Sequence record: OZ335959.1
Length of the DNA stretch: 64,000 bases
Reading direction: 5' to 3' (one strand)
From: a phage
The translations under genes and the position numbers were made by a program. The notes beneath the pieces were generated by a model that did not search any database, was not told the origin of the DNA, and saw only the letters and a list, made by a program, of their open reading frames with translations. Positions within the stretch are counted from its first letter, which is position 1. Every line of letters starts with the position of its first letter. This document shows positions 46,173 to 57,123 of the stretch, piece after piece.

Positions 46173-46592
46173 TTATTCCTTAAAGTGTGCTTTCAACATC
46201 TGATACAAGGACCATGCCTGTTCATTATTTTCAATAGTAACTTTCATGATAGGAAATTCTGTGAAATCTTCTATTTGTTCTTGCTCTTCCTGCTCTTGCT
46301 CTTCAGATGCCTGATATGGATTTTCAACTTCATCAAAGAACCCAGCTTCGTTAGTAGAGAGCCAGATAAAGTTTTCGTCAAGGATATCACCATGTGTTGC
46401 ATATCCAACTGTGCCAGTAGATGTCACAATTTTAGTAGGACGACCAAGATGGTCAACATCTAAAATTTTAAAAGGATGCATACCTAAACGACGTGCATAG
46501 ATTCCGTTATCAGTATGGTCTTTAATAAAATTTTCTTGAGCTTGTTTATTTTTAAATTGATACCATTTATTAACTTCAAATTTAATAGCCAT
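46173..46592 (-). CDS. hypothetical protein (139 aa; position of T4 goF)
   Basis: ORF with acidic EQEQEEQEQ tract. Confidence 0.5.
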
Positions 46593-54069: not shown

Positions 54070-54540
54070 CTAGCGATAAAAACCAAAATGACGATTAGCT
54101 TCAATAATCTTTCTTTCTTCTTCGGACATTCTCCAGCGTAGTCCAACATCAAAATGAGCCCAGACCATCTTAACAAATGCATTTATATCTTTAATATCTT
54201 CAATAATGAATGTTTTACTTTTATAAGGTTGACTAGCTAATTTAACTTTATCGTCTTCAAACAGGTCAAAAAGACCATATTCATGAGCTCTTTTATAGCC
54301 TTTAATAGTTAAAGCTTCAGAAGAAGAAAACGGTGAATCGGTATTCTGTAAAATATCTTCAGTATGCTTTATAATTAGAATAACATTTTCTGGATATTTT
54401 CTTTCTTTTATATCTTTAATTAAAAAATCCGGATTTTCTGCTAAAGGAATAATTAATGAGCAATTTTTATTAAGTGTATTTACTGATTTACCTTCTTTAG
54501 ACATAAATTCTATTGAATATCGTTTTGCTACTTCAATCAT
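54070..54540 (-). CDS. hypothetical protein (156 aa)
   Basis: ORF. Confidence 0.5.
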
Positions 54541-54693: not shown

Positions 54694-54897
54694 TCACGAT
54701 TTATCCCCATAGATGTCTCTCATCAATTTAAGCGCTGAGCGTTCTAATTTCTTTTCTTTCTCGGCACTAATCATTGATTTCATCCATTCTTCTGATTCAT
54801 TCTGCATTTCTTTATTTGCTTGTTCAACCCAACCATCATCAATATACATTGAGTTTGGTCTATTGAACCATTCAAGCATTTTCTTCAGAACTTTCAT
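54694..54897 (-). CDS. hypothetical protein (67 aa)
   Basis: ORF. Confidence 0.45.
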
Positions 54898-55369
54898 TTG
54901 TTTTACCTAAAATAACAGTAGGAGCATCATCAAATTCATGAATTTTTAGCAAATTTGGATGTAAACTATTCCATACAGAAGAAATAAAGTATGATAAAGC
55001 ATCTTCACTTGCAATTATAAATTTATTTCCTTTATCTATTTTCCAACTATATACTGAATCATACGAATAAAAAGATAAAGGTTTATCATTATATTGTTCT
55101 GCGCTAACATTAATGTATTCTGATTTAGTAAATGCTTCAATTGCTCTAAATGGAATATTTGGTACAGTTTCAATAATACCAATCTTTTTAAGTTTTATTT
55201 CAGCATCTTCTGGAACTGGCATTGAAACGAAATTTTCTACGAGATACATTGGGTCACAATAACCCTTATCAATCATTACTGCTACGGTAATTGGAACGTC
55301 TTTAGCAAACGACAAACTATTACTGCTAATATACATTTCAAACAAAATCGCTTCCATAATTTTCCTCAA
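54872..55369 (-). CDS. hypothetical protein (165 aa, or 161 aa from second ATG; position of T4 mrh)
   Basis: ORF. Confidence 0.5.
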
Positions 55370-55704
55370 TCACAAGATGTAGATGAACAACTAGAATCAC
55401 AAGAACTTCCACATGAATCGCCCGTCCATACATGAACAGGAACATTAGTGTCATATGAATCAGAACTAGACTGTGTATTCTGCGTATTAGATGATGTAGG
55501 TATTGACCAGCGCCAAGGATTTTTATAATATTCCTGGGCTTCTTCATAAGTCATAGTAACTGCTTCTACTGTTCCATCTCCCATATAAACATATTCAACT
55601 ACAGTTAAAGGAAGGTAGTCATTTGAAATAGGAACTACACCTTCTCCGGGAGTTGTAGAGAAAAAATCCGTAAAGAAACTTTTAAACCAATTAAAGATAA
55701 ACAT
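55366..55704 (-). CDS. hypothetical protein with Ser/Cys-rich C-terminal tail (112 aa)
   Basis: C-terminus [18 protein letters not shown]. Confidence 0.5.
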
Positions 55705-55916
55705 TACAAAAAGCCTCTTTGAAATTCGACTCTTTGAAATCCACCCCAGTCAGTGTATCGCATTTCAGCATTGAACTCGACTGAACCATCTGCATGCATC
55801 ATGAATGAATGCGTGACGATATCACAATCCCAGCTTTTCATACCCCATTTATCAGAGATAGCTTTATCAAGAACCTTCTGGAGGTCTTCATTTGGTTTAA
55901 TCCAACGATTTAACAT
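55704..55916 (-). CDS. hypothetical protein (70 aa)
   Basis: ORF downstream of promoter module. Confidence 0.5.
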   Translation of the reverse strand: MLNRWIKPNEDLQKVLDKAISDKWGMKSWDCDIVTHSFMMHADGSVEFNAEMRYTDWGGFQRVEFQRGFL

Positions 55917-55938
55917 AGTGCTCTCCTCTATAAGATAA

Positions 55939-55975
55939 TTCTATTATACCATACTTGTTTTGGAAAGTAAACCGG
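55939..55975 (-). promoter_or_regulatory. early promoter module (-35 GTTTAC 55967-55972)
   Basis: Conserved module. Confidence 0.45.
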
Positions 55976-55982
55976 TAAAATG

Positions 55983-56009
55983 AAAAAAGGACTCCCGAAG
56001 GAGTCCTTG
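55983..56009 (-). terminator. rho-independent terminator after soc (GGACUCC-CGAA-GGAGUCC plus U-run)
   Basis: Identical hairpin to 2874-2891. Confidence 0.55.
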
Positions 56010-56014
56010 AATTA

Positions 56015-56260
56015 TTAACCACCAGTTACTTTCCACAAATCTTCGTTTGCAGTAATCCATGCATCACGTTGATTTTCTTCGTATACAGTAGTATATGCTG
56101 CTTTTTCTGAAGGGAATGTCTGGTAATGAGCGCCAGAAATTTTGTGAACGTCAGAATAAAGAGGGAAAGCTACAGAAATTTCCTTTCCTTCAATTTTCTT
56201 ATTTCCATCTAATTTCTGCTCAAATGTTTTAATATTAACATAACCGCGAGTACTAGCCAT
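56015..56260 (-). CDS. soc: Soc small outer capsid protein
   Basis: 81-aa ORF MASTRGYVNIKTF..., matching T4 Soc; late promoter upstream. Confidence 0.9.
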   Translation of the reverse strand: MASTRGYVNIKTFEQKLDGNKKIEGKEISVAFPLYSDVHKISGAHYQTFPSEKAAYTTVYEENQRDAWITANEDLWKVTGG

Positions 56261-56290
56261 GTAATTCTCCTTTTATTTAAATTACATGAC

Positions 56291-56298
56291 TATTTATA
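56291..56298 (-). promoter_or_regulatory. late promoter TATAAATA upstream of soc
   Basis: Exact TATAAATA on minus strand 30 nt upstream of soc ATG. Confidence 0.6.
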
Positions 56299-56332
56299 AT
56301 AAATTCTCACAGCTTTTAAGCCGTCGTTTATA

Positions 56333-56851
56333 TTAATAACCTCGGTCTTGACGAGCGAAGTTTTCAGCATTTTTCAGATAATAAAGTTTAAAGATTTCTT
56401 CAGCCGTAAGACCGAGACCTTGGAACATGTTCAGAACGAAATGAAGAATATCAATCATTTCGAATTTAATTTCCAACTGGTCTTGTGGAGATAAGTCAGT
56501 AATCAGAGTTTCACGACGTTCACCGTGTTGCGACTTCCAAGGCTTCCATACAGCAGATGCATCTTTTTCGCCATTGCTCATACCACCAAGAGAAGTCAGA
56601 AGTTCGCGGAATTCATCATCAATATAATCTTTCTGATTACGCAGCCAATCAACAACTTCACCTGCAGTAGCCAAATCATCAGGATGACGGTTATATTCAG
56701 GTTTATCTTTAGCTAAACGAACTTGCAGAGATTTCTGCATATCAAGCATAACCTGCAGCGGGTCTTTTTCATCACCGAGAATATCCCAGTATTCATTTTG
56801 AGCTTTATCAGCGCCTTCAATTAGTTGACTACATTCGTTAAAGTATGCCAT
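56333..56851 (-). CDS. 56: dCTP pyrophosphatase (dCTPase/dUTPase) gp56
   Basis: 172 aa from MAYFNE (track ORF runs 93 nt further upstream); AAGGA RBS; MazG-like. Confidence 0.85.
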   Translation of the reverse strand: MAYFNECSQLIEGADKAQNEYWDILGDEKDPLQVMLDMQKSLQVRLAKDKPEYNRHPDDLATAGEVVDWLRNQKDYIDDEFRELLTSLGGMSNGEKDASAVWKPWKSQHGERRETLITDLSPQDQLEIKFEMIDILHFVLNMFQGLGLTAEEIFKLYYLKNAENFARQDRGY

Positions 56852-56922
56852 TATTTTTCCTTTCAATTCATGGGTTAGTAGATTAATTATACAATAAATA
56901 TATAAAGCAATAAGGAGGACAT

Positions 56923-57123
56923 ATGGTACAAAAATTAATGGCACTTGTTAATGCCATAAAAGGTAATAAAAAACGTATAGCTTTTACTATTTCTGCTATG
57001 GTAGGAATTTTACTCTGGAATTTTGTTTTATCACCAATTGCTATTGCTCATGGTGTTAATATTCCGGTAATTACTCTTGATACATTCGTAGATTTAGCAT
57101 TTGCTTTGGTTGGGTTAATTTAA
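56923..57123 (+). CDS. small double-TM membrane protein (66 aa), convergent with flanking genes
   Basis: Plus-strand ORF with AAGGAGGA SD 4 nt upstream of ATG; two hydrophobic helices; stop overlaps gene 61 stop. Confidence 0.5.
   Translation: MVQKLMALVNAIKGNKKRIAFTISAMVGILLWNFVLSPIAIAHGVNIPVITLDTFVDLAFALVGLI

Follow-up and report, generated by a model that had tools for sequence, protein, structure and literature searches.

Bacteriophage T4 carries many early genes to which no function has been assigned, and mrh.1 is one of them. Its product (AAD42613.1; UniProt P20706) belongs to the families DUF7206 (PF23836) and PHROG 2031, both of which are annotated as "unknown function". Neither mrh.1 nor DUF7206 is mentioned in a main text of the literature that we searched, and the gene appears in supplementary tables only; in one of these, from a time-resolved omics study, the T4 mrh.1 RNA falls into the early class (PMC9697503, supplementary file 4). 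Here we describe a member of this family from a phage DNA stretch of 64,000 nucleotides (sequence record OZ335959.1; hereafter, the window), in which an open reading frame (ORF) of 112 amino acids ending in a Ser/Cys-rich tail had been predicted from the letters of the sequence. This ORF is, with near certainty, the ortholog of the T4 early gene mrh.1 in a Tequatrovirus. The gene is already known under that name, the window adding another near-identical member, and the results below refine a known uncharacterized gene rather than define a new class of system. What appears to be undescribed in the literature searched, to our knowledge, is the tail signature shared by the whole family, the ancestral state of the tail with two Cys and Tyr, and the finding that the tail is the most constrained part of the protein. 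The part of mrh.1 on which selection has acted is a short thiol/carboxylate tail, and its definition narrows experimental probing to a small and precise set of mutants.

Identity and coding status of mrh.1

The mrh.1 coding sequence lies on the minus strand at positions 55366..55704 of the window and comprises 112 codons, beginning with ATG, and a stop. The codons were read by hand in the raw sequence, which placed the stop codon TGA at 55368-55366, the codon of Asp112 at 55371-55369, and the Cys codons of the tail at 55413-55411, 55401-55399, 55389-55387 and 55374-55372. This codon check and the ORF listing confirm that the predicted ORF, with its Ser/Cys-rich C-terminal tail, is real. The protein matched the Pfam profile of DUF7206 with 97.9 bits (cut-off 25.6) and E=6.4e-28, with residues 3-112 aligned on positions 1-107 of a profile of 107, and phrog_2031 with E=3.7e-34. 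The original prediction had proposed an alignment with ORFs at the T4 mrh.1 position; the alignment identified the ORF as the mrh.1 ortholog, 98% identical to T4 Mrh.1 over its full length. The surrounding region (54800-56300) matched 538 phage records, the best match being Shigella phage Sfk20 at 99.6%.

The trivial explanation of such a tail would be an artefact: an ORF that is not coding, has been frameshifted or contains a sequencing error. Two records could be read in its favor: one database entry (P0006) switches to an alternative frame from residue ~60, and the GenBank record of Sfk20 lists a wrong-frame ORF of 69 amino acids in place of mrh.1. The ORF is nevertheless intact in Sfk20 itself, in T4 and in ~500 phage records, 482 of which covered at least 80% of the query in a tblastn search. 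It is also under strong purifying selection, it is represented by curated Pfam and PHROG families, and its tail is present in all relatives, with synonymous variation of the codons. The comparison with close and distant relatives has already refuted the artefact on the sequence evidence, leaving it a negligible probability, and the frame or sequencing error against which the original prediction had cautioned is excluded. In some phages the tblastn coverage ended at residue 93 or spanned only residues 19-69, as if the tail had been lost. The ORFs are intact there, and the early end of the coverage is explained by the low-complexity filter.

The irregular database entries are worth recording in their own right. 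The 69-residue ORF annotated in Sfk20 (MW341595.1, 2739-2948) corresponds to positions 55338-55547 of the window on the minus strand and lies in the wrong frame over the 3' half of mrh.1, which is itself omitted from that record. P0006 (141 amino acids) is a frameshifted mrh.1 that enters this same alternative frame. A further entry, P0009 (150 amino acids, from a 647-bp ENA contig), is a chimera of unrelated sequence and the first ~30 residues of Mrh.1, most likely an artefact of metagenome assembly.

The family profile, searched exhaustively against 1.84 billion representative proteins, yielded only 28 clusters, which measure 96-144 amino acids except for a few fragments and frameshifted entries. 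The related loci are all found in T-even phages of ~165-172 kb that infect enterobacteria, among them Tequatrovirus, Gaprivervirus (VR7, VR26), relatives of Citrobacter phage Moon, and Serratia phage PS2. A search of 185,579 bacterial and archaeal genomes revealed no relative of Mrh.1 and no prophage copy. It is near certain that the DUF7206 family is confined to the enterobacterial T-even phages (Tevenvirinae).

Bipartite architecture and constraint on the C-terminal tail

Mrh.1 is a bipartite protein, in which a conserved N-terminal module and a conserved C-terminal tail are joined by a variable linker. The tail comprises residues 93-112 (55369..55428, minus strand) and is the most constrained part of the gene. 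It was found in 28 of 28 divergent family representatives, with the consensus ...Y-x-G-S-S-Y-D-S-G-x-S-S-C-D-S-G-S-x-x-S-C-D-COOH, in which the motif S-S-[Y/C]-D-S-[G/S] is repeated two or three times. The penultimate residue, Cys111, is invariant (28/28), and the terminal Asp112 is present in 27 of the 28, the other one having Asn; S101, D103 and S104 are each conserved in at least 90% of the representatives. The tail of the window protein contains Cys98, Cys102, Cys106 and Cys111, of which only Cys106 and Cys111, together with the terminal Asp, are conserved throughout the family. All 25 non-Tequatrovirus representatives carry exactly two Cys and 3-4 acidic residues among their last 22 residues; in 24 of the 25 there is no basic residue in that stretch, and most of these tails contain one to four Tyr. 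The spacing between the two conserved Cys varies from 4 to 10 residues in the family and from 5 to 10 in the 25 non-Tequatrovirus representatives, and outside Tequatrovirus the other two positions are occupied by Tyr or Ser. The four-Cys pattern CX3CX3CX4C is found in Tequatrovirus only. These comparisons show an ancestral tail with two Cys and Tyr, from which the Tequatrovirus form arose by gain of Cys at Ser (TCT to TGT) and Tyr (TAT to TGT) positions.

The codons of the tail have changed while the amino acids have not. Homologous Ser residues switch between AGY and TCN codons, which requires two substitutions, and TGT/TGC, GAT/GAC and GGT/GGC exchanges are likewise found. We compared the proportions of nonsynonymous and synonymous differences (pN/pS) by a crude Nei-Gojobori procedure. 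Within non-Tequatrovirus genera, pN/pS was 0.02 for the tail, 0.28 for the N-terminal module and 0.38 for the linker, and between clades it was 0.21, 0.46 and 1.15, respectively; these values are indicative only, as they come from uncorrected proportions and from pairs that are not mutually independent. Of the three parts, the tail is under the strongest selection, and in it two thiols stand beside carboxylates, including the free C-terminal Cys-Asp.

The composition of the tail had been described as unusual, and within this 64-kb window it is exceptional. Among 48,718 stop-free segments of 18 residues in all six frames, segments with at least 12 Ser plus Cys and 4 Cys were found at only two loci. 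The other locus, at 46246-46311 on the plus strand, was rejected as a composition artefact, as it is the antisense of an acidic Glu/Gln run in a gene of 139 amino acids (46173-46592, minus strand). The Mrh.1 tail is the only such Ser/Cys segment in a real gene of the window. A profile of the tail alone was searched against 5.8 billion proteins and gave 830 word candidates, none with E <=1, a negative of low power given the short, low-complexity profile.

The N-terminal module begins with an aromatic, amphipathic helix (residues 1-15; 55660..55704, minus strand) with the family consensus M-I-x-W-L-K-x-L-F and a hydrophobic moment of 0.4-0.7. It continues with the motif PGEGVVP (residues 19-25; 55630..55650, minus strand), which is conserved in the alignments, and with a predicted β-hairpin (residues 34-52), to which the motif YVYMGDG belongs, followed by a short helix (residues 53-67; hairpin and helix together at 55504..55605, minus strand). 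Across the family, the motifs of this module take the forms PGEG(V/M)VP(I) and (E)YVYMGDGMMEEV. All conserved family motifs are present in the window protein, namely the N-terminal W-x-K-x-x-F helix, PGEGVVP, YVYMGDG-x-x-E-x-V, and the C-terminal ...S-C-D. AlphaFold was run twice, on alignments of 8 and of 28 sequences, and each time gave a helix at residues 4-15, the β-hairpin at residues 34-52 with a predicted local distance difference test score (pLDDT) of ~76-83, and the helix at residues 53-67. The hairpin and the helix after it are the only part of the model with pLDDT ~75-83. In both runs, everything past residue ~68 has pLDDT <50, the tail included, which is predicted to be disordered.

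The aromatic N-terminus and the Cys-rich tail bear on the suggestion, made in the original prediction, that the tail could be a secretion signal. On this reading, the tail or the N-terminus would direct secretion or membrane insertion, and the Cys would form extracytoplasmic disulfides. The N-terminus is indeed very aromatic, and Cys clusters are common in exported proteins. The highest Kyte-Doolittle mean over 19 residues is, however, 0.84 in the window protein and at most 0.93 in the 28 members, well below transmembrane values. In most members the N-terminal hydrophobic run extends over ~9 residues and is interrupted by Lys (and Asp), and the helix is too short and too charged to span a membrane or to act as a Sec signal. 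The tail is acidic and polar, and no signal-peptidase or lipobox pattern was found. The low hydropathy, the short amphipathic helix and the acidic, predicted-disordered tail leave the secretion signal without support, and we consider it extremely improbable.

The linker (residues 68-92; 55429..55503, minus strand) is a low-complexity segment of Ser, Thr, Asn and Gln that varies in length and in sequence within the family. Its length ranges from ~20 to 80 residues, varying by >50 residues, and in the family alignment a short hydrophobic patch ending in W or Y directly precedes the tail. Some Tequatroviruses, such as Escherichia phage vB_EcoM_G2540-3 (locus L035, 647-1141; protein P0003), have an Mrh.1 of 164 amino acids, in which 52 residues are inserted (DDTMEEIIRQPEKAGNVGAGALPLNSKKLKEHLD...IDTAPIITVTAVSS). 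This extra segment resembles the Gaprivervirus-type linker, and both end modules and the T4-type four-Cys tail are kept. As far as the sequences go, the 164-residue form indicates internal recombination, or mosaicism, of mrh.1, with the short T4 form of the protein as a likely deletion derivative.

Structure comparisons added little to this picture. Foldseek searches with the model, which is of low confidence (predicted template modelling score, pTM, 0.27), gave nothing below E=1.8 in the PDB and family members only in BFVD, both of which are weak negatives at this pTM. A sequence search of the PDB with the family profile returned one match, to a β-strand segment of the major capsid protein 6ojn_A (E=0.003), which we judged spurious. 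The alignment pairs residues 220-308 of 6ojn_A with profile positions 8-96, setting VFQNKDTGNVIPIS...VEAYVYMTVGLVSNVER against ...PGEGVVPIS..., and is probably a chance alignment of a two-strand segment.

Candidate roles of the tail

Mrh.1 is an accessory early protein, small and acidic, whose two conserved end modules are connected by a free linker. We propose that it may act as a cytoplasmic host-takeover protein, in which the N-terminal helix and hairpin would dock Mrh.1 either to a partner, of host or phage origin, or to the inner membrane face. The flexible tail would then serve as a reactive arm, presenting its thiols and the neighboring carboxylates, those of the C-terminal Cys-Asp among them. 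Two forms of this chemistry can be envisaged. The tail might be a metal chelator, with the ion perhaps held between two chains where there are only two Cys and inside a single chain in the four-Cys form of the T4 type, or it might engage in thiol-disulfide exchange with a partner. The outcome would be a modest gain in phage fitness during early host takeover. Thiol-dependent chemistry of the tail, whether metal chelation or redox, is a putative role that we advance tentatively and at somewhat less than an even chance. Ser is one mutation away from Cys, yet neither of the two conserved Cys is replaced by Ser in any of the 28 divergent members; that both Cys never become Ser in such a Ser-rich tail suggests that the thiol itself matters. 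The Tequatrovirus lineage, moreover, gained Cys and no other residue type, which we count in favor of thiol chemistry.

The fitness of mrh.1 in T4 was taken from a genome-wide screen by CRISPR interference through antisense RNA targeting (CRISPRi-ART), in which knock-down of mrh.1 was scored as 'Semi-Fit' (0.79, p=0.069), a label given to only five T4 genes whose function is purely unknown, and mrh.2, mrh, srh and soc were scored as 'Not Fit' (PMC11879866 and its supplements).

Several points count against the proposed thiol chemistry. The fitness signal is weak at this p value, and the guides lie over the mrh.2/mrh.1 junction (PMC11879866). Mrh.1 has no protein class in the T4 proteome, in which Mrh.2, Mrh, Srh and ModA.4 were detected (PMC9697503). 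This non-detection is expected, as the predicted tryptic peptides of Mrh.1 are 8, 53, 4 and 47 residues long and those of 53 and 47 residues account for it. The Cys-Cys spacing of 4-10 residues, with no CxxC and no His, is unlike that of typical structural Zn or Fe-S sites, and the catalytic domain to which the arm is attached in all known redox-arm proteins is missing from Mrh.1. The interchange of Tyr and Cys in the [Y/C]-D-S motif would be explained equally well by a binding or modification motif. The mechanism as a whole draws on composition, conservation and analogy, and we hold it with low confidence.

In a second reading, the tail would be a disordered short linear motif. A partner would recognize the ...S-C-D-COOH end and the [Y/C]-D-S-G repeats by shape and charge, as an acidic and hydroxyl-rich segment, the Cys would be chemically inert, and Mrh.1 would work as a decoy or adaptor, as other small early proteins of T4 do. 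The predicted disorder of the tail is consistent with this, as are the exchange of Tyr and Cys at equivalent positions and the variable spacing. A near-invariant extreme C-terminus, as found here, is typical of motifs that fit into a pocket for C-termini, and the neighboring genes srh and mrh carry annotations as host sigma-32 modulators or decoys. Such a motif does not account for the retention of the two Cys in all 28 representatives, or for the addition of Cys, rather than another residue, in Tequatrovirus. We regard an inert linear motif, and the decoy or adaptor role that goes with it, as rather doubtful.

Metal binding had been suggested for the tail in the original prediction, and the version of it closest to the window sequence is a dedicated single-chain site of four Cys, either Zn(Cys)4 or an Fe-S cluster, that would constitute the function of the protein. 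The four Cys fall within 14 residues (CX3CX3CX4C) with Asp and Ser flanks, and all Tequatrovirus sequences examined share this exact pattern. It is neither ancestral nor general, with two Cys in all other genera; it contains no CxxC pair and no His, it lies in a segment predicted to be disordered, and no profile match to any metal-binding family was obtained. An obligate monomeric Cys4 site is argued against in particular because only two of the four Cys are conserved and their spacing is variable. A dedicated Cys4 site is unlikely.

The tail had also been suggested to be a modification signal. It might be the substrate of a modification, either as the Ser/Cys core of a ribosomally synthesized and post-translationally modified peptide (RiPP) carrying lanthionine, azole or thioether, or through ADP-ribosylation of Cys, Tyr or Ser by the phage enzymes encoded by modA and modB. 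Residues 94-108 weakly match the precursor core of the FxLD lanthipeptides (TIGR04363, E=0.034), a match of composition, and the layout of Mrh.1, like that of Ser/Cys-rich RiPP precursors, resembles a conserved 'leader' followed by a Ser/Thr/Cys-rich 'core'. The score of 14.2 bits is less than half the cut-off of 30, Mrh.1 is three times longer than these precursors, and the family is restricted to lytic phages, being absent from the bacterial and archaeal genomes searched. No dehydratase, cyclase, YcaO or radical S-adenosylmethionine maturase was found in the neighborhood in any genus examined, where every neighbor is either a known T4 early gene or a small ORF without assigned function, and we know of no RiPP maturase annotated in T4. 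As to ADP-ribosylation, genes for mod-type ADP-ribosyltransferases are in every case found in synteny with mrh.1, and in Serratia phage PS2 one is directly adjacent to it. This synteny is a property of the early block in its entirety rather than of mrh.1 and mod in particular, and the tail contains no Arg; T4 Alt, ModA and ModB are Arg-specific. The sub-threshold match and the lack of a maturase in the conserved neighborhood give the modification signal no positive support, and we consider it quite unlikely.

A more elaborate variant combines tethering and chemistry. The N-terminal module would hold Mrh.1 on a host enzyme, for instance one that depends on thioredoxin or glutaredoxin, a zinc protease, e.g., FtsH, or a nucleotidyl- or ADP-ribosyl-transferase. 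A thiol or Tyr hydroxyl of the tail would then enter the active site as a pseudo-substrate and trap or titrate the enzyme through a mixed disulfide, metal ligation or covalent modification. That the tail is such a tethered reactive arm, or else a Cys/Tyr/Ser target of the co-encoded Mod ADP-ribosyltransferases, strikes us as very unlikely.

The early gene block and comparison with known systems

On the minus strand of the window, the genes follow the order 61 (primase), 56 (dCTPase), soc, a terminator and a promoter, mrh.2, mrh.1, mrh, srh, modA.4, modA.3, modA.2, modB and modA. The order around mrh.1 is that of the T4 annotation, with mrh.1 between mrh.2 and mrh, and Gaprivervirus, Moonvirus and other loci carry this block too. 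The gene upstream, mrh.2 (70 amino acids, phrog_1873, annotated as unknown function; 55704..55916, minus strand), is present in most relatives, though not in all. Its stop codon overlaps the mrh.1 start in the sequence TAATG, and this overlap of the mrh.1 ATG with the upstream stop suggests that mrh.2 and mrh.1 are translationally coupled. A GAGG Shine-Dalgarno sequence for mrh.1 lies within the 3' end of mrh.2 (55714..55717, minus strand), 9 nt upstream of the ATG. At the other end of the gene, the mrh.1 stop codon is embedded in the Shine-Dalgarno sequence of mrh (TGAGGAAAATTATG), whose GAGG (55364..55367, minus strand) overlaps it in the sequence TGAGG. Upstream of mrh.2 and mrh.1 is a sigma-70 early-type promoter-like site, TTTACT-17-TATAAT with an extended TG (55943..55971, minus strand), preceded by a hairpin resembling an intrinsic terminator (55987..56008, minus strand), which follows soc and separates this late gene from the early mrh.2-mrh.1 unit. 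A terminator is annotated at the same place in phage G2540-3.

Downstream of mrh.1, mrh (54872..55357, minus strand) encodes a protein of the T4_MRH family and starts at the ATG equivalent to the T4 start. The automated ORF call was 54872-55369 with an upstream TTG (165 amino acids), and the comparison with T4 points to the internal ATG at 55357. The call for gene 56 (56333-56944, minus strand) likewise begins at an upstream GTG, giving 203 amino acids, and the comparison with T4 places the start at an internal ATG, the Met of MAYFNEC.... The products of modA.3 (54070-54540, minus strand) and mrh are paralogs, both matching Pfam T4_MRH (PF24070) and phrog_1234. Several other genera carry a modA.3-like copy only, and srh there directly follows mrh.1. 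The segment 56261-57119 differs from T4 in that segF is missing between soc and gene 56, as is dam between genes 56 and 61; the 56-61 gap contains a hydrophobic ORF of 66 amino acids on the plus strand (56923-57123), annotated as hypothetical in Sfk20. Two non-Tequatrovirus loci (L008, 6320-6574; L030, 5276-5512) carry an ORF of 78-84 amino acids between modA.2 and the mod gene, in which a Ser/Tyr/Cys-rich stretch (KSSYSSCQSP or SYESYSYTP) is followed by a hydrophobic C-terminus (ADIAIFGVPLGVF), a faint compositional echo of the Mrh.1 tail.

The neighbors Srh and Mrh share with Mrh.1 their place in the early unit, their small size and their accessory status, and both are without the tail. The N-terminus of Srh (SWLKDWLxRPG) resembles that of Mrh.1 (WLKNLFKTKPGEG). 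In the window (54694-54897, minus strand) and in three further loci (L008, 5340-5534; L011, 5333-5533; L014, 5348-5551), Srh reads M-K-P-L-S-W-L-K-D-W-L-x-R-P-G...Y-I-D-D-G-W, and the corresponding part of Mrh.1 reads M-I-x-W-L-K-N-L-F-K-T-K-P-G-E-G...Y-M-G-D-G-M. Neither homology of the two through the shared WLKxxF..PG nor a docking motif in common received significant support, hhalign having aligned only 13 columns with 10% probability.

Two further systems offer likenesses to the tail. Cys/acid-rich metal-chelating peptides, such as metallothionein- and phytochelatin-like peptides and the metal-chaperone tail of SlyD, have a short, unstructured, Cys/Asp-rich terminus that recalls the Mrh.1 tail. 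The ancestral Mrh.1 tail differs from them: it has two Cys and no more, it lacks His and any Cys-x-Cys or CxxC repeat, and profile searches gave no match. The second likeness is to NrdA, the large subunit of class Ia ribonucleotide reductase, whose C-terminal tail is a redox shuttle, a flexible dithiol arm that reduces the active-site disulfide of the enzyme and is in turn reduced by thioredoxin or glutaredoxin. Like Mrh.1, NrdA has an acidic, flexible tail with two Cys within ~10 residues of the C-terminus (...ADDCAACKL in T4). The two proteins share no sequence homology, the Cys spacing is 4-10 and variable in Mrh.1 as against 2-4 in NrdA, and Mrh.1 lacks a catalytic domain. Specific mimicry of the reductase tail was also considered and rejected, T4 NrdA ending in CAACKL, so that the likeness is generic only. 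Mrh.1 is not one of the redox-arm proteins and would be at most an analogue. The closest described system is T4 Mrh.1 itself, which matches the window protein in its location between mrh.2 and mrh, in the TAATG overlap of start and stop and in the tail, and differs from it by a one-residue indel and a few substitutions in the linker.

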